The notes beneath the pieces were generated by a model that had not been told where the DNA came from, did not search any database, and was given only the letters and a program-made list of their open reading frames with translations. From positions 105,908 through 169,907 of the forward strand of contig DAOOTD010000002.1 in assembly GCA_035390125.1 (NCBI GenBank): 64,000 nt of DNA, written 5' to 3'. This DNA is from Candidatus Moraniibacteriota bacterium. Lineage in GTDB: Bacteria; Patescibacteriota; Minisyncoccia; Moranbacterales; GWC2-37-73. Position numbers and translations under genes: made by a program. Positions 2,519 through 25,322 of this stretch are shown here, piece by piece; the stretch's first letter is position 1; every line of letters begins with the position of its first letter.

Positions 2519-2551
2519 ATACCAATATAAATTATATTGCAAAATATCCAA

Positions 2552-7767: not shown

Positions 7768-8211
7768 ATGATCAGAAATAAAACAAAAACTATGGGTAAA
7801 ATATTATTTATTTGCATAACTTTTGTTTTTGCACTTTTTCTTTTGTTTTCACCTGTTGCACATGCAGCTATTATTACTTGCGGAGCAACCTCAGATGACA
7901 TGTGCACTTTGTGTGATATGGTTGCAGGATTCAATACTATTATCCAGTATCTAATGAAAATTTCAATCGGTGTTGCGCTGCTGGCCATATCCATAGGAGG
8001 GATTTTGTATGTTGTTTCTGCCGGTGAACCTGGAGCTGTTGAAACGGCAAAAAAAGCAATCAAAAACGGAATCATCGGATTTGTTATTGTTTTTTCAGCC
8101 TTTATTATAATCGGTACAGTGATAAGTTATTTAGGAGTACAGGAAGGAATGGGAATACGTTCAGGAGTAACCTGGGGGACATTTGACTGTACAGCAGCAG
8201 GTGTTCGATAG
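7768..8211 (+). CDS. VirB2/TrbC-like T4SS pilin-family protein (CPR-type pilin)
   Basis: Signal peptide (…SPVAHA), Cys-containing mature N-terminus, then TM helix – VSAGEPGAVETAKKAIKNG – TM helix. Same architecture as the paralogs at 8264, 24506, 24852, 25323 and 25730. Confidence 0.55.
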   Translation: MIRNKTKTMGKILFICITFVFALFLLFSPVAHAAIITCGATSDDMCTLCDMVAGFNTIIQYLMKISIGVALLAISIGGILYVVSAGEPGAVETAKKAIKNGIIGFVIVFSAFIIIGTVISYLGVQEGMGIRSGVTWGTFDCTAAGVR

Positions 8212-8263
8212 TAAACCAAAAAGTAATTTATCGTTAGATTTTATTAATAATTTTTTTAAAAAA

Positions 8264-8896
8264 ATGATAAAATTTAAAAAAAATAAACTATTTTTAATGG
8301 CCGTTTTTGTTTTTTTGGCAATGATTTTTTTAAACCCCGTTAACGTATTTGCAGAAGATGCGGTAGTGAACTTTACTAACCCTCTAGGAGATATTACTAC
8401 TCTAGAAGGACTTGTATCTAATTTACTGTCAGCCGTTCAAAAAATAATAGTCTCATTGGCTTTGGTTTTTATTGTGGTGGGTGCGATAATGGTCCTTGTT
8501 TCAGCGGGAAGTCCGGAAACTGTGGAAAAAGGGAAAAAAGCTATTACTATGGCAATAGTAGGTCTCACAATTGGAATTGCAGCCCCATCGATATTAAAAG
8601 AAATCGCGAATGCTGTCGGTTGGAATTGTCCTGAAGGAGCTACAGATTGTGGAACTCTTACTGATGCACTTAATTTTTCCGATATTGCACTAAATGTTCT
8701 TAGTTTTCTTTTAGGTATAGCGGGAATACTAGCCATGATAATGCTGGTCATTGGAGGTATCATGTATTTGACTTCTGCTGGAGATGAAGAAAGAGTAGAG
8801 CAGGGCAAGAAAACATTCAAGTATTCCGTAATCGGAATCATAGTCATTATGAGTTCCATGATAATAGTAAGACAAATTGCTAATCTTTTTTTATAA
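8264..8896 (+). CDS. Tandem double-domain VirB2/TrbC-like pilin
   Basis: Signal peptide (MIKFKKNKLFLMAVFVFLAMIFLNPVNVFA), then two consecutive pilin units (…VSAGSPETVEKGKKAITMAIVG… and …LTSAGDEERVEQGKKTFKYSVIG…). The ORF track begins at an upstream TTG (8183) overlapping the previous gene; the ATG at 8264 is preferred. Confidence 0.55.
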   Translation: MIKFKKNKLFLMAVFVFLAMIFLNPVNVFAEDAVVNFTNPLGDITTLEGLVSNLLSAVQKIIVSLALVFIVVGAIMVLVSAGSPETVEKGKKAITMAIVGLTIGIAAPSILKEIANAVGWNCPEGATDCGTLTDALNFSDIALNVLSFLLGIAGILAMIMLVIGGIMYLTSAGDEERVEQGKKTFKYSVIGIIVIMSSMIIVRQIANLFL

Positions 8897-8934: not shown

Positions 8935-9387
8935 ATGCTTATAAATGTTCCACAATATATAGATGTCGAAGATAAAATTGCAGGTCCGCTCACAGCTAAG
9001 CAGCTGGGGTGGGTTATAGGGCTAGGCATTACTCTTTTGGTAATGTGGAATATGTTGCCTAAGGTTTTGTTTTTTATTATAGGCATACCACTGTCCATTG
9101 CATTTTTAGCCTTTGCTTTTTACAAGCCATATGGTCAGCCACTGGGTAATTTTGTCATTTTTGGGATACTATATTTTTTCCGTCCAAAAATATATTTCTG
9201 GCAAAGAACTCCTCAGAAAAATATTCCCAGCAAGCAAAAAACAAAAACTGAAGAGTCCCGTCCGCCAGAAAAAAAACTTGATACTGAATCAATAATGGAT
9301 TTAGCAAGGGTCATGGACAGCGGTGGTTCTGAACGCAATGAAAGGATAGAAGAACTTTTAAAAAACGTTCCAATTAAAAAGAAATAA
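8935..9387 (+). CDS. PrgI/VirB3-like small conjugation membrane protein
   Basis: 150 aa; N-terminal VPQYIDVEDKIAGPLTAKQ motif then two TM helices and a K/E-rich tail. Directly upstream of the VirB4-family ATPase, as PrgI precedes PrgJ in Gram-positive T4SS. Confidence 0.45.
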   Translation: MLINVPQYIDVEDKIAGPLTAKQLGWVIGLGITLLVMWNMLPKVLFFIIGIPLSIAFLAFAFYKPYGQPLGNFVIFGILYFFRPKIYFWQRTPQKNIPSKQKTKTEESRPPEKKLDTESIMDLARVMDSGGSERNERIEELLKNVPIKKK

Positions 9388-9397: not shown

Positions 9398-10087
9398 ATG
9401 GAATTATTGCACTCAAAAAATCTAACCAAAGGAACTTCCGGAGGAGGAAGTACCCAAAAATATGTCGACGTTGAAGAAGTCCGTGATGGGGTAGTTATAC
9501 TGAAAGATGGATCTATGCGCTCAGTACTTTTGGTTTCTTCAATTAATTTTGACTTAAAAGCTACAGAAGAACAAGATTCTATTATTAATCAATATCAAAA
9601 CTTTCTTAATTCACTAGATTTTCCAATTCAAATAGTGATAAGTTCGCGTAAACTGAATATTGCTCCTTATTTGGAATATCTTAAAAAAAAGGAAACACAA
9701 CTGACTAATGAATTGCTGATTTTACAGCTGGAAGAATATCGTAACTTCATAAAAAGCCTTACCGATGTTTCAAGTATAATGTCTAAATTCTTTTATGTGG
9801 TGGTGCCTTTCTACCCAGTTGAAAATGTTAAAACAAGTGTTTTTGACAGATTTTTCGGAGCTGCAAATACCCAGATGTCTGCTATGCGGAGAAGAGAACT
9901 TTTTGAAACTTACAAAAATCAGCTTTGGCAAAGAATAGAACATGTCAGTTCTGGTTTAAGCAGTACTGGCGTAAAAGCTGTTCCGCTTAAAACTGAAGAG
10001 CTTATAGAACTTTTGTATAATTCATATAATGCTACGACACATAATAATGCAATAATAAGAGATGTAGACAAGATTGAACTCAAATAA
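9398..10087 (+). CDS. VirB4/TraC-family ATPase, N-terminal domain (separate ORF)
   Basis: 229 aa; sequence (…VDVEEVRDGVVILKDGSMRSVLLVSSINFDLKATEEQDSIINQYQNFLNSL…) resembles the N-terminal domain of Gram-positive VirB4 homologues (TcpF/PrgJ type). Ends 72 nt before the ATPase ORF in a different frame. Confidence 0.5.
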   Translation: MELLHSKNLTKGTSGGGSTQKYVDVEEVRDGVVILKDGSMRSVLLVSSINFDLKATEEQDSIINQYQNFLNSLDFPIQIVISSRKLNIAPYLEYLKKKETQLTNELLILQLEEYRNFIKSLTDVSSIMSKFFYVVVPFYPVENVKTSVFDRFFGAANTQMSAMRRRELFETYKNQLWQRIEHVSSGLSSTGVKAVPLKTEELIELLYNSYNATTHNNAIIRDVDKIELK

Positions 10088-10158: not shown

Positions 10159-11982
10159 ATGCTTGGAATAAACAAAAAAAATGACAAAAAACAAACTGTA
10201 AAAAGGGATCCGATTTTAGAAAGTGAGGAATTATATCAGCGTGGTGTTGCAACTATAAAAGATCTTATCGCCCCTTCTGCAATGAAGGTAAGTTCAAATT
10301 ACTTGCAAATAGGCGAAACGTTTGCCAGAACCGTTTTTGTTGTTGCCTATCCTAGATATTTGCATACAAACTGGTTTTCTCCGATTATAAACATTGATTT
10401 TTCCATGGATACTGCGATGTTTATACATCCTATTGATACAGTTGAAATATTAAAAACCCTCAGGAAAACATCAACCCAAGTGCAATCGCAGATTCACATG
10501 GAAGAACAGTCGGGAAAAATCCGAAATCCAATTTTGGAAACAGCCATTGAAGATATAGAAGATTTGCGCGATAAGCTCCAGCAAGGAACTGAAAAATTTT
10601 TCCGCTTCGGGCTCTACATGACTTTATATGCAAATAATTTGGAAGAACTTGAAAAAATACATTTGCAAATAGAAGCACTTCTCGAGGCGCAAATGGTTTA
10701 CATCAAGCCAGCGGTGTTAAAAGCTGAACAAGGTTTTTCCTCTACTTTGCCATTGGGAAATGATGAAATAGATATTGCTAATAATCTCAATACAGCACCA
10801 CTTTCTACGACATTTCCTTTTGTATCTTCAGATCTTTCATCTAATGAGGGTATTCTTTATGGGATTAATCGACACAATAACAGCCTTATTCTTTTTGACA
10901 GATTCCAAATGGAAAATGCCAATATGGTAGTTTTTTCTAAATCTGGCGGAGGGAAAAGCTATACTGTGAAACTCGAAATATTCCGTTCGCTGATGGTTGG
11001 AACCAATGTTGTTGTCATTGATCCAGAAAATGAGTACAAATATTTGTGTGAAACAGTAGGGGGAACTTTCATAAAACTTTCACTTAATTCTCCATATCAT
11101 TTGAATCCATTCGATCTTCCTAAAATTGGCGATGAAGAAGATCCTGAAGATGTTCTTAGGAGCAACATAGCCAGTCTTATAGGACTGCTTCATCTTATGC
11201 TTGGCAATGTAACTCCCGAAGAAGATTCAATTCTGGATATAGCTATTCGTGAAACATATGCGATGCGTGATATTACTGCCCGAAGCAATTTTAAGGCTCT
11301 TAATTCATCTTCTTTTCCGACCATGTCGGACCTTTATGCTGTTATTCGAAATTCAGAAGGCGGAGAATCAATAGCAAAAAGATTGGAAAAATACACAGAG
11401 GGTATTTTTGCTGGGGTGCTTAATCATACAACAAATGTACAGGTTGATAATCAAATGGTTGTCTTTAATATACGCGATCTTGAAGAACAGCTTAGGCCCA
11501 TTGCCATGTATACAGTCTTGCAGTTTATCTGGAATGAAATGCGGTCTTCACTTAAAAAAAGAATTGTAGTTGTGGATGAAGCTTGGGTTATGATGCAAAA
11601 TGATGATGCAGCATCTTTTTTATTTGGTATTGCAAAGCGTTGCAGAAAATATTATACAGGCTTAACAACAATAACTCAGGACATAGCAGATTTTATGACC
11701 TCGCGCTATGGAAAGCCGGTAGTAACTAATTCGTCATTGCAGCTGCTATTGCGTCAGTCTCCGGCAGCTATAGAAACAATTTCTGACACCTTTTTTCTAA
11801 CTGATCAGGAAAAGTTTCTCTTATTGGAAAGTGGGGTTGGAGAAGGAATTCTTTTTGCGGGAGCAAAGCATGTTGCAATAAAAGTTATTGCTTCATATCC
11901 TGAAGATCAAATCATAACATCTGATCCGCGCCAATTGATTGAAATTGAACAAGCCAAAAAAGAATTGGAAGAAGATGAATAA
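10159..11982 (+). CDS. VirB4/TraC/TrbE-family type IV secretion ATPase (ATPase-domain ORF)
   Basis: 607 aa; Walker A FSKSGGGKSY, Walker B VVVDEAW, overall CagE/TrbE/VirB4 domain order. Confidence 0.8.
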   Translation: MLGINKKNDKKQTVKRDPILESEELYQRGVATIKDLIAPSAMKVSSNYLQIGETFARTVFVVAYPRYLHTNWFSPIINIDFSMDTAMFIHPIDTVEILKTLRKTSTQVQSQIHMEEQSGKIRNPILETAIEDIEDLRDKLQQGTEKFFRFGLYMTLYANNLEELEKIHLQIEALLEAQMVYIKPAVLKAEQGFSSTLPLGNDEIDIANNLNTAPLSTTFPFVSSDLSSNEGILYGINRHNNSLILFDRFQMENANMVVFSKSGGGKSYTVKLEIFRSLMVGTNVVVIDPENEYKYLCETVGGTFIKLSLNSPYHLNPFDLPKIGDEEDPEDVLRSNIASLIGLLHLMLGNVTPEEDSILDIAIRETYAMRDITARSNFKALNSSSFPTMSDLYAVIRNSEGGESIAKRLEKYTEGIFAGVLNHTTNVQVDNQMVVFNIRDLEEQLRPIAMYTVLQFIWNEMRSSLKKRIVVVDEAWVMMQNDDAASFLFGIAKRCRKYYTGLTTITQDIADFMTSRYGKPVVTNSSLQLLLRQSPAAIETISDTFFLTDQEKFLLLESGVGEGILFAGAKHVAIKVIASYPEDQIITSDPRQLIEIEQAKKELEEDE

Positions 11983-12015: not shown

Positions 12016-12519
12016 ATGCCTGAAGATATTGCAAGAAATTTTAAAAACAACAGCGATAACCTTGATAGAGCTAGGCGAGAAAGGCCCAGCTCTTTTAGCA
12101 ATGGAAATCCTGTTGATATGACAAAAAATATTTCTAAAGCGGCTATAGCTAAAGGTTTTTTCCCTTTACTGAAAGAAATAGATCTTTCCAAAGATATGCC
12201 ATTTGTAGCTGCGCTTCTGGGTGCTTTAGGAAAAGATGTCTCTGACTTTGTTTTTGCTGAAACAATAATACTTTCCATGCTTACCTCAATTCTTTGTTCT
12301 ATATTTATTTTCATGATGTTAATTCTTGCTGGTTCTGGGCGAAGAAATAAGTCGGCAAGAGGCTTTGCTAAAAAAGCACTTACATTAATAGGAGGCGGAG
12401 CAGCTGATTCATTGCCCGGAGTAGATTTTTTACCAATTGAAACACTTACTGTCGGAATGATATATATTATGGTGTTGGCAGAAAGAGCAAGTGAAAAAAA
12501 TAATAAATTCAAACTCTAA
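12016..12519 (+). CDS. Hypothetical membrane protein (T4SS-cluster associated)
   Basis: 167 aa ORF with ATG on the same strand as the flanking operon. Charged N-terminus plus two hydrophobic segments. The overlapping minus-strand ORF looks low-complexity and was not chosen. Confidence 0.3.
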   Translation: MPEDIARNFKNNSDNLDRARRERPSSFSNGNPVDMTKNISKAAIAKGFFPLLKEIDLSKDMPFVAALLGALGKDVSDFVFAETIILSMLTSILCSIFIFMMLILAGSGRRNKSARGFAKKALTLIGGGAADSLPGVDFLPIETLTVGMIYIMVLAERASEKNNKFKL

Positions 12520-12609
12520 ATAATATATAGGCTTCACAATTAATTTTATAGCTGATCAGCTAATAATTAAGCACAAAAAAGTGTCAAGCTGATCTTTTCT
12601 TTTTTATTT

Positions 12610-14136
12610 ATGTCTTCTAAAATATATTCTGCCGCAACTATAGGTCTGGACGGAGAAATTGTAGAAGTTGAAGTTGATATTCTAGGATCCGGCCTGCACA
12701 ATTTTTCAATCGTTGGTCTCCCGGATATTGCAATCAAGGAGTCGCGTGATCGTGTTTCGAGTGCTATAAAAAATAGCGGATTTAAGCCACCACATCAGTG
12801 CGGTCGCATTACGGTGAATCTAGCTCCGGCAGACTTGCCAAAGGCCAGCCCTATTTATGATCTTCCTATCGCTATGGGATTTTTGCTTGCGACCAAACAA
12901 TTGCAATTTGATTTTAATGGCAGGATGATTGTAGGAGAACTTTCTCTTGACGGGCGCATACGTCCTATACAGGGAACTTTACCTATAGCTCTCTTGGCAA
13001 AAGAAAAGGGGTTTAATGAATTATATGTTCCATTAGAAAATGCAGCTGAAGCCAGTGTAGTTAAGGGAATAAATATTGTACCTGTAGATACTCTTTATTC
13101 TTTGGCTGATCATTTTTCTGGCAATAGAAAAATTGATTATTTCCCATCATTAGACGGGGATGTCCTATTTTCAACAGCAGATTATGAAATAGATATGGCT
13201 CATATTAAAGGTCAACAACATGCCAAGCGTGCTCTGGAAATTGCAGCAGCTGGTGGGCACAATGTTATTTTAAACGGACCTCCAGGATCAGGAAAGACTT
13301 TATTGGCTAAGGCTATTCCTACTATTCTCCCCCAGTTAACATTGGAAGAAGCATTGGAAATAACAAAAATATTTTCAGTTTCCGGAAAACTTAGGAAAGG
13401 ACAACCTCTAGTTACTTCAAGGCCATACAGAAATCCACATCATAGTGCCAGTAGTGTTTCTTTGATTGGTGGGGGGAGTTATCCAAAGCCTGGAGAAATA
13501 AGCTTAGCGCACAGGGGAGTTTTGTTTTTGGATGAGTTTGCTGAGTTTCCTAAAAGTGTTTTAGAGAATTTGCGCCAGCCACTTGAGGATGGTATGATAA
13601 CAATCTCAAGAGCCAAAGGATCTTTATATTTTCCAGCCCGGTTTATTTTGGTGGCCGCTATGAATCCCTGTTTTTGCGGGAACGCTACTGATCCGGAAAA
13701 AATATGCACATGTACGCCAGCACAGATTTCCCGGTATAAGCAAAAAATTTCTGGACCAATTATGGACCGCATTGATCTGCACATTGAAGTGCCACGTTTA
13801 AGTTTTGACAAGCTTCAAGAAGGAATAAGTGAAGAAAAAAGCGAGCAGATACGTGCCAGAGTGGAAGCAGCCAGAAAAATACAAGCTAAAAGATTTGAAA
13901 ATTTGTCGGTAATTTCTAACAGCGAAATGTCTTCTGATCAAATAAGACAATTTTGTCCTTTAGACGAAGAGTGCAAACAGCTTTTAAGAAATGCTGTATC
14001 AGCTCTAAAGCTTAGTGCCCGAGCTTATCACCGTATAATAAAAATCGCGCGTACTATTGCAGATCTTTCAAATAGTGAAAATATTCAGCCGGCACATATT
14101 GCCGAAGCCATTCAATACAGATTCAAAATGGAATGA
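12610..14136 (+). CDS. comM: YifB/ComM-family Mg-chelatase-like AAA+ ATPase
   Basis: 508 aa; N-terminal Lon-like domain (MSSKIYSAATIGLDGEIVEVEVDI), Walker A GPPGSGKT, Walker B LFLDEF, C-terminal ChlI/MoxR-like region. Confidence 0.85.
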   Translation: MSSKIYSAATIGLDGEIVEVEVDILGSGLHNFSIVGLPDIAIKESRDRVSSAIKNSGFKPPHQCGRITVNLAPADLPKASPIYDLPIAMGFLLATKQLQFDFNGRMIVGELSLDGRIRPIQGTLPIALLAKEKGFNELYVPLENAAEASVVKGINIVPVDTLYSLADHFSGNRKIDYFPSLDGDVLFSTADYEIDMAHIKGQQHAKRALEIAAAGGHNVILNGPPGSGKTLLAKAIPTILPQLTLEEALEITKIFSVSGKLRKGQPLVTSRPYRNPHHSASSVSLIGGGSYPKPGEISLAHRGVLFLDEFAEFPKSVLENLRQPLEDGMITISRAKGSLYFPARFILVAAMNPCFCGNATDPEKICTCTPAQISRYKQKISGPIMDRIDLHIEVPRLSFDKLQEGISEEKSEQIRARVEAARKIQAKRFENLSVISNSEMSSDQIRQFCPLDEECKQLLRNAVSALKLSARAYHRIIKIARTIADLSNSENIQPAHIAEAIQYRFKME

Positions 14137-15089
14137 TAAGAATTTCAAAAAAACTAAAATACATCTTTTTTTTAACTGGACTGGCAATCCTTTTTTTCTT
14201 TATATTCAATAAAGATAAAAATGATATTGCTATAAACTTTAATTCTGAAAAAAAGAAAATTGAATTGACTGATAGCAATATCACTTTTGAATTAATGTCT
14301 GCGGCCAAAACTGTAGAAGATTTTATGAACGAGCAAAAAATAGTCCTGGAAGAAAATGATTTAATTGTGCCTGATAAAAATAAAGAAATTTTTTCTGGTA
14401 CTCATATAATCATCAAACGAGCAAAAAACATAACAATTAAAGAAGCGGATAAAAAAACTAAAACGCATACTCTTTTGGATACTATCGAGCAAGCTGTTTG
14501 GGAGAATAAAGAAATAACTTTGTCCGATGATGATATTACGAATCCATCAAGGCGAGTATTGGTCAAAGAAGAAATGACAATTATTGTTACACATGTTGTC
14601 ATAAAAGAAGAAATAAAAAAGCAGGATATCGATTTCAAAACAATTTCTAATGAAGATGATAAATTAGGTTGGCGCGTTAAAAAAGTCACCCAAAAAGGAA
14701 TAAAAGGCACGCGTGAAATAAAATATAAAGTAGTTTATCATGACAATAAGGAAATATCGCGCAAAATTCTGGAAAGCAATGTTACAAAAGAACCAATTGA
14801 AGAAATTGTTACGCAAGGAACATATATGAAATTAGGCAAGGCTAATAAAGGACAGGGTACCTGGTATGCCTGGAAAGGGGGACTTTTTGCTGCCAGCACG
14901 ACTCTTCCGCGCGGCGCATATGCCAAGGTGACCAATGCGGAAAATGGCAAATCGGTCGTTGTCCAAATCAATGATTATGGCCCGCAAGGTAAAGGACGCA
15001 TTATTGATTTGGACAAAGTTGCTTTTGAAAAAATAGCTTCATTAGGTGCGGGAGTTATTGGAGTCAAAGTGGAGCAAGTACTCAATTAG
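14133..15089 (+). CDS. RlpA-like double-psi beta-barrel (DPBB) domain protein, secreted/anchored
   Basis: 318 aa; N-terminal TM/signal anchor. C-terminal GTWYAWKGGLFAAS…VVVQINDYGPQGKGRIIDLDKVAFEKI matches the RlpA/expansin-like DPBB fold motif. Start overlaps the comM stop (ATGGAATGA). Confidence 0.55.
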   Translation: MIRISKKLKYIFFLTGLAILFFFIFNKDKNDIAINFNSEKKKIELTDSNITFELMSAAKTVEDFMNEQKIVLEENDLIVPDKNKEIFSGTHIIIKRAKNITIKEADKKTKTHTLLDTIEQAVWENKEITLSDDDITNPSRRVLVKEEMTIIVTHVVIKEEIKKQDIDFKTISNEDDKLGWRVKKVTQKGIKGTREIKYKVVYHDNKEISRKILESNVTKEPIEEIVTQGTYMKLGKANKGQGTWYAWKGGLFAASTTLPRGAYAKVTNAENGKSVVVQINDYGPQGKGRIIDLDKVAFEKIASLGAGVIGVKVEQVLN

Positions 15090-15133
15090 TTTATAAAGTT
15101 ATAAAGTTCATAAGGTTCATAAGGTTCATAAAG
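15089..15133. repeat. Short tandem repeat, about 5 copies of GTT(C)ATAA(A/G)
   Basis: gtttataaa gttataaa gttcataag gttcataag gttcataaa read directly in the sequence, ending at the ksgA start. Confidence 0.7.
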
Positions 15134-15135
15134 TT

Positions 15136-15969
15136 ATGGAAATCAAAGCGAAAAAATCTTTAGGACAGAATTTTTTGAAAGACGAGGCAATTTTGCAACG
15201 GATTATTGAAAGTGCGAAACTTTCTGCTGATGATGTTGTCATTGAAATCGGGCCGGGGCAAGGAGTGCTGACGGAACTGCTGACTGAGGTTGCCAAAAAA
15301 GTCATGGCGATTGAATTGGATGACCGACTGGTTGAAATGTTAAATAACAAGTTGCGTAACAAAGAAAATATTGAAATTATCCATGATGATATACTAAAAA
15401 TAAATCTTCCAGAGCTTATTTTTAACAAGCTGAAGAAGCTGAAAGCTAAGGAAGTTAAATATAAAGTTGTCGCTAATATTCCATATTACATTACTGCTCC
15501 AATTATTAAATTATTTTTAGAAACCAAATTTCCACCGAGTGAAATGATTCTGATGGTGCAGAAAGAAGTAGCGGAAAGAATCTGTGCCAAGGCAGGAAAA
15601 ATGAGCATTTTGGCAGTGTCGGTGCAATACTATGCTCAGCCGGAATATTTATTCACTGTGTCGAAAGAATCTTTTGAGCCGATGCCGAAAGTGGATAGTG
15701 CAGTAATTAGAATCATAAGAAACAAAAAACCTGCTTCGCCGGCAGGCAGACGAGAAACAAGAAACAAGCAGGACGTTAAAAAATTTTTTAGAATTGTGCG
15801 GGCGGGATTTTCAGCCAAAAGAAAAACTTTAGCTAATAATCTTTCTAATGGATTTCAAATAGACAAAAAAACTTCTGAAGAAAAATTAATCGCGCTTGGT
15901 TTTTCGAAAAATACTCGCGCTCAGGAACTGACAGTGGAAGATTGGAGGAAAATAGAGAATATTTTATAA
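15136..15969 (+). CDS. rsmA: 16S rRNA (adenine1518/1519-N6)-dimethyltransferase
   Basis: 277 aa; N-terminal KKSLGQNFL motif, SAM-binding VIEIGPGQG, KsgA/Dim1 family. Confidence 0.9.
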   Translation: MEIKAKKSLGQNFLKDEAILQRIIESAKLSADDVVIEIGPGQGVLTELLTEVAKKVMAIELDDRLVEMLNNKLRNKENIEIIHDDILKINLPELIFNKLKKLKAKEVKYKVVANIPYYITAPIIKLFLETKFPPSEMILMVQKEVAERICAKAGKMSILAVSVQYYAQPEYLFTVSKESFEPMPKVDSAVIRIIRNKKPASPAGRRETRNKQDVKKFFRIVRAGFSAKRKTLANNLSNGFQIDKKTSEEKLIALGFSKNTRAQELTVEDWRKIENIL

Positions 15970-15982
15970 AAATAAATTTTAT

Positions 15983-18172
15983 ATGGGCATAGTCTCTGAA
16001 TTAAATGAAAAACAAAAAGAAGCGGTAATGACAACAGATGGACCGCTTTTGATTATTGCCGGAGCGGGGTCGGGCAAAACCAAAACACTGACACATCGGG
16101 TAGCCTATCTGATTAAAAATCACGGAGTCAATCCGCGCAATATTTTGGCAGTGACTTTTACTAACAAGGCGGCGGGGGAAATGTGTGAAAGGATCATGCG
16201 AATTTTATATCCCGAGGCAGACAAAAATTATAAATATAGTTTGTATAACAATTCGAATCTGCCAACCATTGGAACGTTTCATGCAATCTGTTCCAAAATA
16301 CTGCGCAGTGAAATAGAAGTTTTGGGATATGAAAAATCGTTTCACATCATTGATGACCAGGATCAGCAGGCTTTAATGAAAAAAATTCTAAAAGAAATGG
16401 AAATAGATCCACAGCAGTTCAATCCAAGAGCAATTCTATCAACCATAAGTAAGGCTAAAAATGAGCTGATAAGTAGGGAAGAATTTGAAAATCAAGCCCA
16501 TGGATATTACGAAGAAATTGTGGCTAAGTGCTATAAACGCTACCAATCACATCTTAAAGAAAACAACAGTCTGGATTTTGATGATATTCTTGTTTTTATA
16601 GTAAAAATTTTTCAGAATTTTCCTAAAGTGCTGGAAAAATATCAGAAACAATTCAAATATATTTTAGTGGATGAATATCAGGATACCAATCGGGCGCAAT
16701 ATTTATTTATAAATATGTTGGCCGGGAAGCACAGAAATTTATGCGTTGTGGGAGATGATTGGCAAAGTATTTATAAGTTCCGAGGCGCAGACATTAAAAA
16801 TATCCTCAATTTTGAAAATGATTATCCAGAAGCCAAAGTAATACATCTGGAACAGAATTACCGTTCAACCCAGGTTATTCTGGATGCGGCCTATGGTGTT
16901 ATTTCCAAAAACATAAATCGCAAGGATAAGAAACTTTGGACGGAAAAAGAAGCCGGGCATTTGGTAACTTCTTTTGAGGCTGAGGATGAATGCGACGAAG
17001 CTGAGTTTGTCGCAGATGAAATAAAAAAAGGAGGCATGCCTTATAGCAAATACGTAGTTTTATACCGTACCAATGCACAATCACGCGTTATTGAAGAAAC
17101 TTTTCTAAAAAAATCAATACCCTATCGAATTATCGGAGGCATTAAGTTCTACCAGCGAAAGGAAATAAAGGACGTGATTGCTTATCTTAAATTAATTTCA
17201 AATCATAGTGACACAATTTCATTGGAGAGGATAATCAATGAACCAAAAAGAAATCTGGGTCTAGTTACATTCAAAAAGTGGGTAGATATCGCTAAGAAAA
17301 AAAATTTAAATCTTATTGAAGCCGGATTAAAATTTTCAGAATCTGAATTTAAATTTCCAGAAAGTCTGCAACTAGTAAATTCAAAAATTGATGCAATAGC
17401 TAAGCTCTGCGACTTTATAAAAAGAATGAAAGAAATCCAGCCGAGAATAACATTAGCTGATTTTATTGAAAAAGTTTTTAAGGAAAGTGGATACGAAAAA
17501 ATGCTGTTGGATGACGGAGTTGAAGGTGAAATGCGCTGGGAAAACGTAAAAGAACTTATAACCGTGGCGCATAAGTATGATGAAAATAAAGCAGAGTATG
17601 GAGATATTTTAAGAGCGTTTTTAGAAGAGGTTGCACTCACATCTGAAGCAGACAACGTTGACCAAAATCAAGATGCAGTGTATCTTATGACTCTGCATAG
17701 CGCTAAAGGTCTAGAATTCCCTGCGGTTTTTATAGTCGGTTTGGAAGAAGGAATATTGCCGCACTCCAGAAGCATGCTTTCCTATGAAGAAATGGAAGAA
17801 GAAAGGCGTTTGATGTACGTAGGCTTAACTAGAGCCAAGGAAAAAATATATCTTTTATTCACGCGCCAACGCAATTTGTTCGGTTCAACGCAGATGAATT
17901 CTCCTTCCAGATTTTTGGACGATATACCTGAAAAACTTGTAAAACATAACTCATGCCGTGAAACAGAAAAAAAGATATTTGAATCGCTTTTAAAAAAGAA
18001 GAAGAAATCAGAAAAAAAAGCGAATTTTTTCAAAGGGGGAGAGAAAGTCAAACATGAACAATTTGGGGAAGGCATAGTTGTTTCGTCTGTTGGCGACATT
18101 ATTACAGTGGCATTTAAAAAAGCCGGAATCAAAAGATTGTCGGCAGAATTTGCAAAGCTTGAACAAATTTAA
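15983..18172 (+). CDS. uvrD: UvrD/PcrA-family ATP-dependent DNA helicase
   Basis: 729 aa; motif I AGAGSGKTKTLTHR, motif II VDEYQDTN, motif Q and helicase superfamily 1 motif order. Confidence 0.85.
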   Translation: MGIVSELNEKQKEAVMTTDGPLLIIAGAGSGKTKTLTHRVAYLIKNHGVNPRNILAVTFTNKAAGEMCERIMRILYPEADKNYKYSLYNNSNLPTIGTFHAICSKILRSEIEVLGYEKSFHIIDDQDQQALMKKILKEMEIDPQQFNPRAILSTISKAKNELISREEFENQAHGYYEEIVAKCYKRYQSHLKENNSLDFDDILVFIVKIFQNFPKVLEKYQKQFKYILVDEYQDTNRAQYLFINMLAGKHRNLCVVGDDWQSIYKFRGADIKNILNFENDYPEAKVIHLEQNYRSTQVILDAAYGVISKNINRKDKKLWTEKEAGHLVTSFEAEDECDEAEFVADEIKKGGMPYSKYVVLYRTNAQSRVIEETFLKKSIPYRIIGGIKFYQRKEIKDVIAYLKLISNHSDTISLERIINEPKRNLGLVTFKKWVDIAKKKNLNLIEAGLKFSESEFKFPESLQLVNSKIDAIAKLCDFIKRMKEIQPRITLADFIEKVFKESGYEKMLLDDGVEGEMRWENVKELITVAHKYDENKAEYGDILRAFLEEVALTSEADNVDQNQDAVYLMTLHSAKGLEFPAVFIVGLEEGILPHSRSMLSYEEMEEERRLMYVGLTRAKEKIYLLFTRQRNLFGSTQMNSPSRFLDDIPEKLVKHNSCRETEKKIFESLLKKKKKSEKKANFFKGGEKVKHEQFGEGIVVSSVGDIITVAFKKAGIKRLSAEFAKLEQI

Positions 18173-18178
18173 TTTTTT

Positions 18179-19090
18179 TTATTTCTTTTTTCCGTGAAAC
18201 TGCTTGTGTATTTCTTTGAGTTGCTTGTTGGTAATGTGCGTATAAATTTGAGTTGTCGTTATGGAAGAATGTCCCAACATTGTTTGCACGCTTCGGATGT
18301 CAGCTCCATTAGAAAGTAAGTCTGTGGCAAAACTATGCCTTAGCGTGTGCGGATGTACATTTTTCACGATACCTGCTTTGGCTGCATAAAATTTTACTAT
18401 TCTTTGAATTGAACGTGGGGTCAAGCGCTTTGTTTTTTCGTTTCCAATTCCCCCTTTTTCGGATAATCGAATAAATAAAGCCGGATCCAAGTCCATGCGC
18501 TTGCTCAAATATTTTTCCAACGCCTCTTTTGCAGTATCAGAAATGAAAACTATTCTCATTTTATCGCCCTTGCCAATCACGCTAAATTCTTGTCTGGAAA
18601 TGTTCAATTGGTCGCAGTTTATATTTATAAGTTCAGAAACACGAAGTCCTGCCGAAAAAAGAAGCTCCAAGATTGCCCTATCGCGCATGGACTTTATGTC
18701 TGATCCTTCTGCGGCATGCAAAAGGCGGTCAAGCTCACCACTATCAAGAAACTCAATTTCATGTGATGGATTTTTACCAACTTCCAATTTTTCAGCGGCC
18801 AAACTTTTAATATCGCGCTTGGCAAGATATTTCAGAAAACTGCGGATGGCTATTATATGATAATTTTGAGTAACTTTTTTCAGTTCCTTGCCATGGCTAT
18901 CTTTCTGCCGGTTCAGATATAAACGGTAGCTCCTTATAAGCTCAGCAGTGATATCCTTGGGTTCGGATATTTTTGCCCAGGTCAAAAAGCGCTTGAGATA
19001 ATGATGATAATTCTCAATAGTCTTCTGCGAACGGTTACGTTCAATCTCCAAATATTCAAGAAATTCAGTCAGAAGGTTTTTTAATTTCAT
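18179..19090 (-). CDS. xerC: Tyrosine site-specific recombinase (XerC/XerD-like)
   Basis: 303 aa; catalytic R…HxxR…Y pattern (HTLRHSFATDLL, …QIYTHI), N-terminal SAM-like core-binding domain. Confidence 0.8.
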   Translation of the reverse strand: MKLKNLLTEFLEYLEIERNRSQKTIENYHHYLKRFLTWAKISEPKDITAELIRSYRLYLNRQKDSHGKELKKVTQNYHIIAIRSFLKYLAKRDIKSLAAEKLEVGKNPSHEIEFLDSGELDRLLHAAEGSDIKSMRDRAILELLFSAGLRVSELININCDQLNISRQEFSVIGKGDKMRIVFISDTAKEALEKYLSKRMDLDPALFIRLSEKGGIGNEKTKRLTPRSIQRIVKFYAAKAGIVKNVHPHTLRHSFATDLLSNGADIRSVQTMLGHSSITTTQIYTHITNKQLKEIHKQFHGKKK

Positions 19091-19234
19091 AAATTATTTC
19101 CGATTATTCATAAAAAAGCTTTTCATGCCTTTTACGATCTAATTGTACTCTTTTTTTGAAATATAAAAAAGATATAACCCCAAAAAATGGCTTAAAAAAA
19201 GGAAAAAAAATAATTTTAAGACAAAACATCTTTG

Positions 19235-19265
19235 ACAAAAATATCCCTAGGTATATACTTGAAAC
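19235..19265 (+). promoter_or_regulatory. Candidate sigma70-like promoter (TTGACA, about 17 nt, ATACTT/TATATA) for the hydrolase/VirB6 module
   Basis: Perfect TTGACA hexamer at 19235-19240 with an A/T-rich -10-like hexamer about 17 nt downstream; lies in a 415-bp intergenic region. Confidence 0.25.
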
Positions 19266-19505: not shown

Positions 19506-20567
19506 TTGCGTAATTATTCAGCCTTTGCAGTGGTGGTATCAAGTTCACTTCTTGTTTCAGCAACAAATGTTGCCTCAGGCAATAATTATGGCAAACTTCT
19601 TTTTGGTTATTGGGATGCATCAGCTGAGACCATTCCAGCGGTGAATGGCAGTAAAATAAGCGGACAGGTAAATAAAAAAAATGATTTAGCTCTTGTTCCC
19701 CTTTCCAAATCAAACACATCCATTGAACCAGAAAAAAAAGAAGATGATTCAAACAGGAGCATTATAAAGGATGACGGAATAATGCTGGTTTCTGGCGGAG
19801 CCAATCCGATGAAAGATCCTGAAGAAGAGGGCGGGGTTAAAATGTATATTGTACAATCCGGTGACACTCTCGGTTCAATCGCTGAAAAAAATGGAGTTTC
19901 GGTTAATACTATTTTGTGGGCAAATGACATCAGTAATGCCGACTCCATAATGCCAGGAGATACTATGTTCATTCTGCCTGTTTCAGGAGTAAAATATGTC
20001 ATAAAATCGGGAGACAATCTTGATGCTATCGCTAATAAATTTAAAGCAGAAAAAGATAAAATAATAGCCTTTAATGATTTGCCAGCGAATGGAGAAATAA
20101 AAGTGGGAGAAGAAATAATTATTCCTGATGGCCAGGGAGAAGCTCCTAAGCCAGCTGTTCCAAGCAGCAGCCAATCCTTAATCAATAAGAGGCAATATGC
20201 GAATACTGCAGGAGGAGTTCCCCAGATTACGGGCAGAATTCTTTCAGGGAAAGCCGGCACTGGTCATAGATTTCCATATGGATATTGCACTTGGTTTGTC
20301 GCCCAGAAACGTTATGTTCCCTGGGGTGGCAACGCTGGAACATGGCTGTACCATGCAAAAGCTGCCGGGTATGCAACCGGAAAAACTCCACGACCAGGAG
20401 CTATCGTAGTGACTACCGAGAACAGATATTATGGTCATGTGGCTTATGTTGAAAAAGTCAGCGGAAACAGTTTTACTGTTTCTGAAATGAATTATGTCGG
20501 TTATGCAAAAACAAGTCGCAGAACAATCTCAACTTCAAGCAGAGTTATTAAAGGTTTCATTTATTAA
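19506..20567 (+). CDS. Secreted peptidoglycan hydrolase with two LysM domains and a C-terminal CHAP amidase/peptidase domain
   Basis: Signal peptide; LysM repeats (YIVQSGDTLGSIAEKNGVS…, YVIKSGDNLDAIANKF…); CHAP Cys (GYCTWFVAQKR) and His (GHVAYVEKV). The ORF-track start is a TTG at 19506; the true start is uncertain. Confidence 0.75.
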   Translation: MRNYSAFAVVVSSSLLVSATNVASGNNYGKLLFGYWDASAETIPAVNGSKISGQVNKKNDLALVPLSKSNTSIEPEKKEDDSNRSIIKDDGIMLVSGGANPMKDPEEEGGVKMYIVQSGDTLGSIAEKNGVSVNTILWANDISNADSIMPGDTMFILPVSGVKYVIKSGDNLDAIANKFKAEKDKIIAFNDLPANGEIKVGEEIIIPDGQGEAPKPAVPSSSQSLINKRQYANTAGGVPQITGRILSGKAGTGHRFPYGYCTWFVAQKRYVPWGGNAGTWLYHAKAAGYATGKTPRPGAIVVTTENRYYGHVAYVEKVSGNSFTVSEMNYVGYAKTSRRTISTSSRVIKGFIY

Positions 20568-20749: not shown

Positions 20750-22711
20750 ATGAATCTGATCTCGAAAAACAAAAAATTTTTCTGCAAAATCAAATTATTT
20801 TTTGGAATTTCCAGGGTTAAACTGGCAAGTCTTTTGCGGGACAAAAAATTCCAAACTTTTGTGGTCGCCGGATGCATTTTTCTTTGCGTCTTTTTTTTGG
20901 CGGTTCATGGGGTCTTTGCCGCTGACGCTGTTCCTGAAAAACCCGAAGAACCGGGTTTATTAAGTAAATTTTTTGGGGGAATACTTGATGGGGCAAGTGC
21001 AGTTTTTGTCACTGCCATATCCTTTATCTTGAGTGCAATTCAAGGCGTTATGAGTTTTCTAATCGGCGTGGCAGCTTCTCTTTTTTCAGCAGTTATTAAT
21101 CCTGATTTAATTTCCGGAGATAAAGGTTTATTGAACAATAATCCAGTTGTTAAGGATATCTGGATTATGGTGCGGGATACTTTCAATATGTTTTTTATTC
21201 TAGTCCTTCTTTTTTCCGCCTTCTGCACTATTTTCCAGATCGAAAAATGGAACCTTAAAAAAGTCTGGCTCAACATTCTCATCAATGCCCTGCTGGTTAA
21301 TTTCAGTTTTCCAATTGCATGCTTTTTTATTGATGTTGCGAATGTAGCTATGTATTATTTTGTTAATTCTATGTTTGGTGACAATACTGGCGCAGTTACA
21401 GGAAACGCAATTTTTGCCCAGTTGGGGGATGAATCAAGACTTTCGGCATTGTGGGGCCATGATGCTGATGGAACTACGATGCTAATGTATCAGGTTATGA
21501 ATATCATAATGTCTTTTATTTTGGGAATAACACTCTTGGTTTGTGCAGTTCTTTTTGCTATAAGGCTTATAGCCCTGGTAATCCTGGTTATGTTTTCGCC
21601 GATAGGTTTTGTCGGTTACATTTTTCCCGCAACCAGTAAATTTGCAGACGACTGGTGGAAAAATCTTTTCAGCTATTCTTTTTTTGGTCCGATAATGATT
21701 TTTGTCATAGGAGTTGCTGTCAAAATAAACCAATCAATAGGTGAAAATATATTTAAACAGTCGGCCGCTGACAATGCTGCATCGGTTCCTGGCGCAAGCG
21801 AATGGATTGCCAGTGCTTCCATGTTTGCTATTCCCATAATCATTTTGTGGATGGGCATGGGAGTAGCAAAATCATTGGGAATCGCAGGGGCGGATACAGT
21901 GGTTGGGGCAGGACAGAAATTTGCAAAATTTGCCGGTACAGCTACAGCCATGGCAGCTGGCGGAAATTGGGCTGCAAAGAATTGGAAGATGTATAAAGAA
22001 AAGCGTGATGAACGCCAAAAAGAGATTGACAAGAAACGTTTTGGGGGAAGCTTCGCCAAAGGACTCAATAAATGGGAAGATACTGGAATTGGTTTTGCAG
22101 GTGAAAAAATATCAAAAGGTATTGGAAAAGCTACTGGTGGCAAATGGACACCTAAGTTTGGAGAAAATGCTAAGGCAAGAGTCAAAGGATATCAGAACAC
22201 GGAATTTGATGAATTAGCTAAAAAACAGGCTGAGAGAATTAAGAATTCTGAAGACACTGGACATACTGCACAACAAATGAATGATTTTATTAAAAATAAT
22301 AATCAAATAACAGACGAATCAAAAGATTCAGAGGTAAATGATTTCGTTGGCAGATACAAACAAATGAGAGAAGATCCAGGAGCAAAAGCTGCTTTTGAAT
22401 ATAACATTAGAAACAATGCGGACAATATAAGGCAGTCAATTGAACAAGGAAAAATAGAGGCACAAAAATTAGTTGATAATGGTACTTTTGAAGAGGGATC
22501 TAATGAACATAAGGCCGCAATGAATTCTTTCCAAAAATCTCACATGGAGTCAATTGTAAAAAATCACTGGGCTCATTTAGCTCAAGAAAATAAGAACGCC
22601 CAGAAAAGGAAGAAAGGCGAAAAAATTAAGGATGATGAGCATAAGGCACCTCCTCCACCTCCTCTACCTCCTCCACCAAAACCTGCAAAACAGAGAGCTG
22701 GTTTTGTTTAA
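20750..22711 (+). CDS. VirB6/TrbL-like polytopic membrane protein with proline-rich C-terminal tail
   Basis: 653 aa; signal/anchor then about 7 hydrophobic helices over the first 370 aa, then a long hydrophilic K/E/Q-rich C-terminal domain ending KAPPPPPLPPPPKPAKQRAGFV. Call based on topology and neighbourhood only. Confidence 0.4.
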   Translation: MNLISKNKKFFCKIKLFFGISRVKLASLLRDKKFQTFVVAGCIFLCVFFLAVHGVFAADAVPEKPEEPGLLSKFFGGILDGASAVFVTAISFILSAIQGVMSFLIGVAASLFSAVINPDLISGDKGLLNNNPVVKDIWIMVRDTFNMFFILVLLFSAFCTIFQIEKWNLKKVWLNILINALLVNFSFPIACFFIDVANVAMYYFVNSMFGDNTGAVTGNAIFAQLGDESRLSALWGHDADGTTMLMYQVMNIIMSFILGITLLVCAVLFAIRLIALVILVMFSPIGFVGYIFPATSKFADDWWKNLFSYSFFGPIMIFVIGVAVKINQSIGENIFKQSAADNAASVPGASEWIASASMFAIPIIILWMGMGVAKSLGIAGADTVVGAGQKFAKFAGTATAMAAGGNWAAKNWKMYKEKRDERQKEIDKKRFGGSFAKGLNKWEDTGIGFAGEKISKGIGKATGGKWTPKFGENAKARVKGYQNTEFDELAKKQAERIKNSEDTGHTAQQMNDFIKNNNQITDESKDSEVNDFVGRYKQMREDPGAKAAFEYNIRNNADNIRQSIEQGKIEAQKLVDNGTFEEGSNEHKAAMNSFQKSHMESIVKNHWAHLAQENKNAQKRKKGEKIKDDEHKAPPPPPLPPPPKPAKQRAGFV

Positions 22712-22753: not shown

Positions 22754-23152
22754 ATGGATATAGATGCTATAAAAGACAGACTGACGAATAAATTTTCTTT
22801 GCCGCACGTTTCTTTTGAACAGGACACGATAGAACAAAAGAAATTGCTTGCGCTGTATGTGCTTGCTTCTGATAGCCAGCTTGTGTTGTTGCCGACTTAT
22901 TTTGCTTTTTCTTATCCCGCTTTCATTGCCGGTCTTAATGAAAAACATATTGAATATATAGCCAAAAACGCTCCAGCTGATTACAAAAGAGAGCTTATGA
23001 AAGCAATCAGCCAGAGCTACGTGCTGAAAGAAGTTTTTGAAATTGCAAAATCCATGGATGAAGATTTGGGCAGAAGCAGCACAACTAATCAGGACAGAAT
23101 AAAAAATGTCATGCGGTATATCAGGGATAACAGAGTAATTTTTGAATTCTAA
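22754..23152 (+). CDS. Hypothetical protein (T4SS-cluster associated)
   Basis: 132 aa soluble ORF, ATG start, protein-like composition. The overlapping minus ORF is not protein-like. Confidence 0.4.
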   Translation: MDIDAIKDRLTNKFSLPHVSFEQDTIEQKKLLALYVLASDSQLVLLPTYFAFSYPAFIAGLNEKHIEYIAKNAPADYKRELMKAISQSYVLKEVFEIAKSMDEDLGRSSTTNQDRIKNVMRYIRDNRVIFEF

Positions 23153-23162
23153 AAAACAAAAA

Positions 23163-24500
23163 ATGACAGTCATATATACAAATCAAAACAACATCTCTCC
23201 CAAAAATAATGCCGGCCAGTATGATTTGAATGAGGAAAGGAAAATAGCGGATGAAATAACCGAAGAGATAAAAGAAGACCTTATTGAAAAATGGAGAACA
23301 ACATATGAAAATGCTGAAATTTTTCCGTATAAAATCAGTGCCATGCATTCGGATGTCCTTGATTTTCTCTTGGGATTTGATCTGATTTCCATTTATGACA
23401 ATATAGCCAGACAGGCAGGACTTGATATGAAAGGCAGAAGCATTCTTCCTCAAGTTGTGTGGAGCGTTGCGCAAAGCAAAAAATGGAGTGAGGCAGAACA
23501 GGAATTGCAGAAAAGAATATTGCTTCCCCCGAATACTAAAGCTTTGACTTTGCAGCTTCTTGAACAAAACATAATAAGCAAACTTATCATGCTTTCGGCT
23601 AAGCCTTCGGCCAAAAAAAGTCCTGCCCAGAGCGAAACAGAAAGAAGAATCCAGTTGCCGCTTTCAGAAGCATTGCAAAAATACAAGGAACTGGGAGAAC
23701 AAAACATTACTATCAATCAGCTGAAACTCAAATATTTTCCTACGCCTGTCAGGCCATCTATAAGAAACTGGATTACTGATTTCCATGACAACATGGGAAG
23801 CGGAAAGCATGGTACAGTCGATAGGGCGAATTATTTATTTCACAGCGAAAATGGGAAAAAACTCACGCCCGTAGAAAGGCAGAAACTTTCATTGATTCTT
23901 AAATCACTGGACGAAAAAACTCCTTTAATCATCGATACGGAACTGCAACGGATTATTTTCACAGAAGGCAAGGTTTTTCCAAATGAACAAACTGAAAATT
24001 TGCCAAGCCGGAGCGGACAAACAGCAGAAATAAATATGTATTCAAAAAATGAAGAGTCTAATAGCTTTGCTGCTATAGAAGATAATTATCTGCAAGTTCC
24101 GAAATATCAGCCGCCCCAAGAAAATAAAAAATATTCTCCCAACTTCAAGGACTTGACGGAGCCGAGCGTTTTGCCGGAACAAAAAATAGTAAATTCAAAT
24201 CAGGATGATTCAAGAGGTTCGGTTGTGGATGAAGGCAAGGTAAGTTTTTCTTCTCCGCAAAAGTTTTCAAATGAAAAAGAAAATGAAAAACCAATAAGGC
24301 CTGCTAGTACGATTAGCCAGCAAAAAACATTTATGACCCCAACGCCACAAGCAGATAGAGAAAAAACATTTGGAAATAAAGCATCTGAAATAAAACCGTG
24401 GGTCATCAAGCCGTCTGCTTATTTTAATGAAGAAAAAACGGATGAAGAACAAACTTTACAGGCAAAAATAAGAGGAAACATTGTTGATTTAAAAGGCTGA
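23163..24500 (+). CDS. Hypothetical protein with low-complexity Q/K/E/P-rich C-terminal half
   Basis: Long ORF on the operon strand. The ORF-track start is a TTG at 23142; the ATG at 23163 is preferred. No recognisable motif. Confidence 0.4.
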   Translation: MTVIYTNQNNISPKNNAGQYDLNEERKIADEITEEIKEDLIEKWRTTYENAEIFPYKISAMHSDVLDFLLGFDLISIYDNIARQAGLDMKGRSILPQVVWSVAQSKKWSEAEQELQKRILLPPNTKALTLQLLEQNIISKLIMLSAKPSAKKSPAQSETERRIQLPLSEALQKYKELGEQNITINQLKLKYFPTPVRPSIRNWITDFHDNMGSGKHGTVDRANYLFHSENGKKLTPVERQKLSLILKSLDEKTPLIIDTELQRIIFTEGKVFPNEQTENLPSRSGQTAEINMYSKNEESNSFAAIEDNYLQVPKYQPPQENKKYSPNFKDLTEPSVLPEQKIVNSNQDDSRGSVVDEGKVSFSSPQKFSNEKENEKPIRPASTISQQKTFMTPTPQADREKTFGNKASEIKPWVIKPSAYFNEEKTDEEQTLQAKIRGNIVDLKG

Positions 24501-24778: not shown

Positions 24779-24851
24779 TCAGGATTCAAACGAATAAAGG
24801 AAAGTTTAAAATAAATAAAAAAATTTATAAACTAGAATGGGAGGTGTTACT

Positions 24852-25199: not shown

Positions 25200-25226
25200 A
25201 TTTTTTGTATGCATATAAAAGCAGAA

Positions 25227-25252
25227 GGCGATTCCTCGGAATCGTCTTTTTT
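25227..25252 (+). terminator. Rho-independent terminator
   Basis: GACGATTCC/GGAATCGTC stem (1 mismatch) followed by TTTTTT. Confidence 0.5.
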
Positions 25253-25322
25253 GCAAAGTGTACATAATTTAAGGATTATGATATAATTAAATTATAATAA
25301 TAATTTTTTATACTTTAAAAAA

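Follow-up and report, generated by a model that had tools for sequence, protein, structure and literature searches.

Does the function of a competence or repair gene follow from its place beside a secretion ATPase? The question is raised by a 64,000-nucleotide stretch from a Candidatus Moraniibacteriota bacterium (GenBank assembly GCA_035390125.1, contig DAOOTD010000002.1, positions 105,908 to 169,907 of the forward strand; hereafter the window), which is chromosomal DNA of an ultra-small, reduced-genome member of Candidatus Moranbacteria (Patescibacteria). Here five genes, among them comM, lie between two sets of type IV secretion system (T4SS) genes. The original prediction for this DNA named the five genes as comM, an RlpA-like gene, ksgA, uvrD and a Xer-like recombinase gene, and held that the neighbourhood fits a DNA-uptake or DNA-processing role of the pilus/ATPase apparatus. 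All five are at the places it gave, and the map of open reading frames (ORFs) and the profile scores agree with its family calls. As to their meaning, we consider it very probable that they are independent, vertically inherited housekeeping genes doing the jobs of their families, and that their position between the T4SS halves is a by-product of one rearrangement. The block comprises:

12610-14136, + strand: ComM/YifB AAA+ branch-migration helicase (Pfam, TIGR00368, PDB 8RXD)
14133-15089, + strand: membrane-anchored DUF348-G5-DPBB_1 protein, predicted to be peptidoglycan-binding or lytic (Pfam)
15136-15969, + strand: KsgA/RsmA 16S rRNA dimethyltransferase (TIGR00755, 256 bits, cut-off 171)
15983-18172, + strand: full-length PcrA/UvrD-family superfamily 1 (SF1) helicase (Pfam UvrD-helicase, UvrD_C and PcrA_UvrD_tudor)
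18179-19090, - strand: Xer-type tyrosine recombinase (Pfam Phage_integrase and SAM-like N domain)

The T4SS genes on its two sides are:

7768-8211, + strand: VirB2-like pilin (Pfam T4SS_pilin)
8183-8896, + strand: VirB2-like ORF with two pilin domains (Pfam T4SS_pilin/TrbC)
8935-9387, + strand: PrgI/VirB3 (Pfam PrgI)
9398-10087, + strand: TrsD-like protein, homologue of the VirB4 N-terminus (NCBIfam TrsD and VirB4 N-terminal matches)
10159-11982, + strand: VirB4 ATPase (Pfam TraG P-loop/AAA_10; NCBIfam conju_CD1110)
12016-12519, + strand: h167, 167-residue membrane protein, T4SS accessory of family c13/c7 (by its position after VirB4)
19506-20567, + strand: LysM-CHAP peptidoglycan hydrolase (family profiles)
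20750-22711, + strand: VirB6/TrbL-like protein (Pfam)
22754-23152, + strand: h132, uncharacterised
23142-24500, + strand: h452, uncharacterised; PrgI-TrsD-VirB4 directly downstream in other lineages
24506-26227, + strand: four VirB2-like pilins (Pfam T4SS_pilin)

The two secretion modules complement each other as halves of one T4SS and are not duplicates. Together they hold VirB4, TrsD, PrgI/VirB3, VirB6 and pilin arrays, with no relaxase nearby, which is the make-up of a Patescibacteria-type chromosomal T4SS. comM had been placed directly downstream of the VirB4 module; it is indeed on the same strand and close, but the h167 ORF (12016-12519) sits between VirB4 and ComM. Searches of h167 gave no Pfam or NCBIfam match, and a homologue directly follows VirB4 in split and contiguous loci alike (cluster of n=77).

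We compared 160 related loci, 80 anchored on ComM and 80 further ones, from metagenomes, anchored on VirB4. The ComM-anchored scan took one genome per species, at 61-89% ComM identity, and all 80 of its loci come from metagenome-assembled genomes (MAGs) belonging to the candidate phyla radiation (CPR), mostly labelled Moranbacteria or Moraniibacteriota. (The record titles of several MAGs with a Moranbacteria-type locus read 'uncultured Bdellovibrionales', 'Micavibrio sp.' or 'Candidatus Fimivivens sp.', probably through mislabelling or mis-binning of CPR contigs.) Synteny counts take in informative loci only, binned by ComM identity. A neighbour-joining tree was built from 95 VirB4 sequences, the window's included, and gene families were assigned from Pfam, from NCBIfam/TIGRFAM at curated cut-offs and from PDB sequence matches. 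Around ComM, the counts were as follows:

ComM identity at least 77%: VirB4 directly upstream (via h167) in 16/16, G5/DPBB gene downstream in 18/18, KsgA downstream in 15/15
ComM identity 66-77%: VirB4 directly upstream in 5/18, G5/DPBB gene downstream in 18/26, KsgA downstream in 11/20
ComM identity below 66%: VirB4 directly upstream in 0/27, G5/DPBB gene downstream in 24/27, KsgA downstream in 24/26

The pairing of the G5/DPBB gene with KsgA accordingly holds in 15/15, 11/20 and 24/26 informative loci of the three bins. Outside the subclade to which the window belongs, the usual order is S15-NYN-PNPase-membrane protein-YraN (UPF0102)-DksA/TraR-LspA-ComM-G5/DPBB-KsgA-UbiA(-), often followed by UvrD-Xer(-)-LysM-CHAP, which places YraN three genes upstream of ComM in the majority of other Moranbacteria loci; no homologue of S15, NYN, PNPase, YraN, the DksA-like protein or LspA was found in the window. 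Of the 24 ComM loci that lie outside the split clade and extend 9 kb or more to each side, 22 had no T4SS core gene within 10 kb. The older neighbourhood of ComM thus already holds its partner YraN and is otherwise one of housekeeping genes.

The view from VirB4 is complementary. Loci whose VirB4 is at least 81% identical to the window's repeat its order from infB through Xer, and at 76% identity or less every informative locus is contiguous, in the order VirB6-(h132)-h452-PrgI-TrsD-VirB4-h167-c24-c25-pilins. Upstream of these contiguous clusters stands either KsgA-UbiA(-)-c27-c28 or UvrD-Xer(-)-LysM-CHAP, and clusters of the former type have no UvrD, Xer or LysM-CHAP adjoining. (The contiguous clusters, such as L107, L110, L113, L118 and L121, carry extra conserved genes at about 11.8-16 kb in the locus: c24, a polytopic membrane protein; c25, a secreted protein of about 970 residues; and c27-c29, of which c27 has Asp-rich thrombospondin-type-3-like repeats. 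No homologue of c24, c25 or c27-c29 was found in the window.) In the VirB4 tree all split loci, the window among them, fall into one nested clade. Outside it branch locus L107, next L020 and then everything deeper; the cluster is contiguous in L107 and in each deeper branch with a readable arrangement. The order VirB6-VirB3-VirB4 is also that of monoderm conjugation systems, for example prgH-prgI-prgJ of pCF10. Since the split loci are nested among contiguous lineages and the contiguous order is the monoderm one, the sandwich arose by a single derived rearrangement.

These distributions bear directly on the DNA-uptake reading of the neighbourhood, for which VirB4-comM-...-uvrD synteny across relatives had been proposed as the test. 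Sister and deeper lineages have VirB4 beyond VirB6 in a contiguous T4SS, and the adjacency of VirB4 and ComM, dropping from 16/16 through 5/18 to 0/27, belongs to one derived clade. Because the synteny does not extend beyond that clade, the inference fails this test, and a link to DNA uptake gains no real support from the ComM/UvrD locus. Of the overall interpretation, the gene identities and the non-mobile layout stand; the step from neighbourhood to DNA uptake does not.

In the rearrangement that we propose, the half consisting of PrgI-TrsD-VirB4-h167 would have moved, in a single subclade, from downstream of VirB6-h452 to upstream of ComM, displacing the ancestral upstream neighbours of ComM, namely S15, NYN, PNPase, YraN, the DksA-like protein and LspA. 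We infer the individual biochemical roles of the enclosed genes from family membership, and likewise that functional coupling is lacking. ComM would be a hexameric helicase that drives branch migration of RecA-paired incoming single-stranded DNA, together with RecA, DprA and YraN; PcrA/UvrD would be an SF1 helicase of repair and replication; Xer would resolve chromosome dimers, the DUF348-G5-DPBB protein would remodel the wall, and KsgA would serve in 16S rRNA maturation.

Several observations weigh against this account. The VirB4-h167-ComM adjacency has no exception within the subclade, down to about 68% ComM identity. A looser and older linkage of the T4SS with the block also exists: among contiguous VirB4 loci, KsgA, the G5/DPBB gene, UvrD or Xer lies at most 10 kb upstream in 9/17 informative cases, and 3 more reach only UbiA. 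As these genomes are highly syntenic, the linkage is most simply read as vertical inheritance of a chromosomal position. Transcriptional read-through from VirB4 into ComM is possible, because the genes are co-directional, the gaps are short and no terminator-like site was seen. DNA-acting genes are nominally enriched in the block (3/5, the rest of the window having six genes for replication, repair or recombination, namely those of AP endonuclease, HolA, Fpg, PolA, RuvB and RuvC), a comparison that is post hoc since the block was chosen for containing those genes. Lastly, the proposed move does not cover the origin of the methyltransferase, solute-binding protein and pilin genes upstream of PrgI, and the route, weighed from gene orders alone, could have been duplication and loss, transposition or double inversion.

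How the genes would be transcribed matters for what follows. All except Xer are co-oriented, and GC skew is positive. A search of the + strand between VirB4 and ComM gave no terminator-like site. The h167-ComM spacer is 90 nucleotides (nt) in the window and 0-228 nt and unconserved among relatives. It contains a perfect 12-bp palindrome, AGCTGATCAGCT, at 12553-12564, with a AGCTGATC copy 25 nt downstream; the palindrome is not conserved among relatives, and a structured element or terminator in this spacer was considered and rejected, as the palindrome folds no better than shuffled sequences (z = -1.4).

Beyond the block, a promoter-like site resembling those of sigma70 (TTGACA-16-TATACT, 19232-19259) precedes the LysM-CHAP/VirB6 genes, and this site and the following CAGTTAAAAATTAAGG motif align in 22/24 relatives. 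The second half cannot share a transcript with ComM-UvrD, because Xer lies between them on the opposite strand; LysM-CHAP/VirB6 is thus predicted to be a separate transcription unit with its own promoter-like site. The LysM-CHAP frame runs open from 19302, and the called TTG start at 19506 is its first ATG, GTG or TTG codon. Its leader has a conserved GAAAGGA, then 7 nt, then ATT-AGC/AGT-AAA-AAA, upstream of that start, and in some genomes a 13-codon mini-ORF precedes; translation probably begins at an AUU near 19362. A permissive Rfam scan of the Xer/LysM-CHAP spacer gave chance-level matches only.

Could the T4SS have been held in this place by selection on position, with no shared pathway? 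It would then be kept among highly expressed growth-phase housekeeping genes, those of the KsgA region, for the sake of dosage or expression, as has been proposed for origin-proximal T4SS loci. KsgA, DnaA, DnaN and RpmH are abundant near virB4 (PMC12102498), the T4SS cluster is downstream of KsgA in many Moranbacteria lineages, and the shared orientation of all genes but Xer, with positive GC skew, would suit such an arrangement. The window has no dnaA/dnaN or origin signature, however, and many Moranbacteria have KsgA without a neighbouring T4SS, so we regard this as unlikely.

A second possibility, and to our minds an improbable one, is that the genes are functionally coupled: the T4SS pilus and VirB4 would import host or environmental DNA, the adjoining ComM, PcrA/UvrD and Xer would process it, and co-expression would keep the genes together. 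The strict conservation of VirB4-h167-ComM within the subclade speaks for it, as do the apparent lack of a terminator between VirB4 and ComM and the frequent location of the T4SS cluster downstream of KsgA or UvrD-Xer, at a distance of a few genes. Like the DNA-uptake system ComB, the T4SS lacks a relaxase or coupling protein in its vicinity. Import of DNA or other macromolecules has been proposed for it, and comF, recG and radA are reported near the T4SS in class ABY1 (PMC12102498). On the other hand, the adjacency is a single derived event, seen in 0/27 distant relatives and in no locus of the contiguous type, and the older, more widespread neighbours of ComM include its true partner YraN and no T4SS genes. 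ComM-G5/DPBB-KsgA persists without a nearby T4SS, T4SS clusters persist without adjoining UvrD or Xer, and KsgA and the wall hydrolase, two of the block's five, are unrelated to DNA. Furthermore, the second T4SS half forms its own transcription unit beyond Xer, which is on the opposite strand. In Saccharibacteria, competence relies on type IV pili and ComEC, and the T4SS, which is essential in Ca. Southlakia epibionticum, is so independently of ComEC (PMC12857230).

A broader version, which we think very improbable, is that the T4SS is a DNA importer whose long-standing nearness to ComM(-YraN), PcrA/UvrD and Xer reflects a functional unit through which host DNA is acquired and recombined, one drawn tighter in the subclade by the VirB4-ComM adjacency. 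DNA import has already been proposed for the Patescibacteria T4SS on other grounds (PMC12102498). The terms ComM, YifB and UvrD were not found in the supplements of that study, the text of which is possibly incomplete, so that this is not evidence of absence.

Effectively excluded is the reading in which the region from 7.7 to 26.2 kb is a conjugative or mobilisable element that integrated by means of the Xer-like recombinase: its VirB4 is nearest to the VirB4 of integrative conjugative elements of Firmicutes (CD1110 family; 373 bits against conju_CD1110, cut-off 325), a tyrosine recombinase lies inside it and a tRNA-Ser gene (5447-5537) upstream, but it has no att-like repeats, its GC content is flat, the window's annotated ORFs include no relaxase or type IV coupling protein, the recombinase is of Xer type and fixed beside UvrD whatever the T4SS arrangement, the core genes ksgA, comM and pcrA lie inside it, and the same chromosomal position is inherited in dozens of species. 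The original prediction had likewise argued that this is not simply a mobile-element layout, citing the embedded ksgA; the evidence now reaches well past that gene. Direct repeats of att type, which it had named as what would tell against it, were sought around 5-27 kb, and short imperfect AT-rich chance matches were all that appeared. GC content is about 35% throughout the window (range 0.33-0.39), with no compositional island, and Xer, 59-85% identical among relatives, adjoins UvrD under either T4SS arrangement. An Rfam scan of the window at gathering thresholds returned the tRNA-Ser only, some 2.2 kb upstream of the region, which is kept in place across dozens of species-level MAGs. The absence of att repeats, the flat GC, the lack of a relaxase or coupling protein and the in-place inheritance across species together argue against a mobile element.

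The identities on which the housekeeping reading draws are for the most part clear. The predicted ComM is a full-length protein of three domains (ChlI, PF13541, E 1e-40; Mg_chelatase, PF01078, 2.7e-94; Mg_chelatase_C, PF13335, 4.4e-35; residues 20-504 in all) that scores above its family cut-off (TIGR00368, 615 bits, cut-off 362) and matches the Legionella ComM structure 8RXD over its full length (residues 8-505, E 1.8e-124).

The gene that follows overlaps the comM stop, as predicted, its ATG start lying within an ATGA. Its product has, from N to C terminus, a membrane anchor, a DUF348 domain (53-82, E 6.5e-8), a G5 domain (158-230, E 2.7e-18) and DPBB_1 (Pfam, E 3.2e-13). The description 'RlpA-like' holds for the C-terminal DPBB fold and not for the whole protein, which is a DUF348-G5-DPBB protein of RpfB/YabE type: the RlpA model TIGR00413 gives 61 bits, below its cut-off of 82, over the DPBB segment (251-315) only, there is no SPOR domain, and since the last 65 residues alone are similar, RlpA identity was rejected. 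The sole solved relative of the DPBB segment is the small DPBB protein PA4485 (PDB 4AVR, E 7e-12). By its N-terminal architecture and by gene position, 46 nt directly upstream of ksgA, the predicted protein is the RpfB/YabE-type counterpart. It departs from both RpfB and YabE in its C-terminal domain, for which family searches gave no Rpf or Sps/3D match, and one DUF348 was detected, as against 2-3 in RpfB/YabE.

The helicase aligns with the PcrA model TIGR01073 over positions 2-724 of 725 at 859 bits, below the equivalog cut-off of 911, and we therefore call it PcrA/UvrD-family and prefer neither name. The junction between KsgA and UvrD (15969-15983) measures 13 nt in the window. In relatives it is a hot spot for insertions, with up to 4.8 kb of variable genes; such inserts (for example L005 13541-16001 and L014 13660-18479) hold TrmB-like regulators and small uncharacterised ORFs.

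Xer is convergent with UvrD at the far end of the block, as had been noted, with 6 nt between the stop codons. There is one copy in the window. It scores 244.5 bits against the XerA model (cut-off 220) and 258/257 against XerC/XerD (cut-offs 335/330), and its best PDB matches are archaeal XerA (4A8E and 5HXY) and E. coli XerD (1A0P). The alignment with 4A8E has the motifs RDR, GKG.K.R, HxLRHSFAT, LGHS and IYT, and with them the catalytic residues R-K-H-R-H-Y. Presumably it resolves chromosome dimers. No dif site was identified in the Xer/LysM-CHAP spacer, which was examined for conserved blocks only and yielded the promoter-like site and leader, with no obvious dif palindrome.

Among the T4SS genes, ORF 8183-8896 is a tandem fusion of pilins (two T4SS_pilin/TrbC domains), and the window has seven VirB2-like pilin domains in total, with 28-56% mutual identity where alignable. 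In the split clade, a methyltransferase gene and one for an SBP_bac_1 protein (5714-7762) lie upstream of the pilins of the first half. The LysM-CHAP gene goes with UvrD-Xer and not with VirB6 in several relatives; its predicted product may be either VirB1-like or a housekeeping hydrolase.

Core genes occur throughout the window (infB, rbfA, nusA, H+-PPase, tig, clpP, gpmI, rny, holA, fpg, polA, tsaE, ruvB, yebC, ruvC and a class A penicillin-binding protein). The genes infB-rbfA and nusA usually form a single operon. Here infB-rbfA (- strand, 2189-4333) and nusA (+ strand, 26340-27563) are divergently oriented, and the 22 kb that separate them contain the T4SS halves and the block; relative L022 instead has ComM-LysM-CHAP-NusA-Tig-ClpP without intervening T4SS genes. 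Further on, a 1027-residue ORF (47278-50361) with two T2SSE (PilB/PilT-type) ATPase domains and MshEN resembles a tandem-fused type IV pilus ATPase, and a 647-residue protein with three lamin-tail domains and PKD (53189-55132), probably a surface protein, is preceded by a bacterial PH-domain protein. The annotated ORFs of the window include no comEC, comEA or dprA.

Little about the locus is new: its genes are further members of known families, the locus itself is of a known kind, and the clade-specific split of the cluster is its only unusual feature. The case does carry a caution. Where CPR genomes are small, gene-dense and rich in information-processing genes, finding a competence or repair gene beside a secretion ATPase gives weak grounds for inferring a common pathway. 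Moreover, since this T4SS cluster has been split and yet retained, its halves appear to work from separate transcription units.

Compared with known systems, the secretion genes agree best with the chromosomal T4SS described for Patescibacteria, which has the same gene set, a separate TrsD ORF, pilin arrays, no relaxase and often KsgA close by (Quinonero-Coronel et al. 2025, PMC12102498), and which derives from monoderm conjugation systems (PMC12102498). The window shares its monoderm (MPF-FATA-like) VirB4, separate TrsD, PrgI/VirB3, VirB6, CHAP/LysM VirB1-like hydrolase, divergent pilin arrays, chromosomal location and nearness to KsgA. It differs in that the cluster is split by a housekeeping block of 6.5-8 kb, a trait confined to one Moranbacteria subclade, and, unlike the contiguous Moranbacteria clusters, it is without c24, c25 and c27-c29 and has a methyltransferase and a solute-binding protein ahead of the first half.

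Helicobacter pylori ComB and the archaeal Ced importer are also T4SS-derived machineries without a relaxase and offer a precedent for DNA import of VirB4 type. The window differs in that it has no comEC, comH or dprA, its gene set is of monoderm type and its link to ComM is lineage-specific and derived; its VirB4 has weak similarity to CedB/CedD in NCBIfam, far under the cut-offs. The recombinase resembles the single-recombinase Xer systems (XerA of archaea, XerS, XerH) and XerC/D in its Phage_integrase and SAM-like N domains, its catalytic motifs and its single copy in the window, and the scores, above cut-off for XerA and below for XerC and XerD, do not place it in any one Xer subtype.

ComM is a branch-migration helicase (PMC6158740), with which the nuclease YraN has been reported to co-evolve and interact, resolving transformation D-loops (bioRxiv 10.1101/2024.02.06.579203). 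The predicted Moranbacteria pair is like that one in having a full-length three-domain ComM and, in most genomes, YraN three genes upstream, which is consistent with a working transformation-recombination pathway in the group; the window's subclade has lost this proximity, and the window contains no YraN.

Finally, RpfB of Actinobacteria and YabE/SpsB of Firmicutes have DUF348-G5 in common, differ in their C-terminal muralytic domain and are encoded in the string tatD-rpfB/yabE-(rnmV)-ksgA (PMC1084345), which is conserved; in mycobacteria, rpfB shares a transcript with ksgA (PMC1084345, PMC6009663). Similarly, nearly all Moranbacteria loci examined encode a membrane-targeted DUF348-G5 protein with a small C-terminal domain of muralytic type directly upstream of ksgA. 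The window's protein, in contrast, has DPBB_1 (RlpA-like) and one DUF348, and its gene is preceded by comM instead of tatD, with no rnmV or ispE. The RpfB/YabE-ksgA pairing of monoderm bacteria thus extends to the CPR, where the wall-active domain at the C terminus is of a third type.

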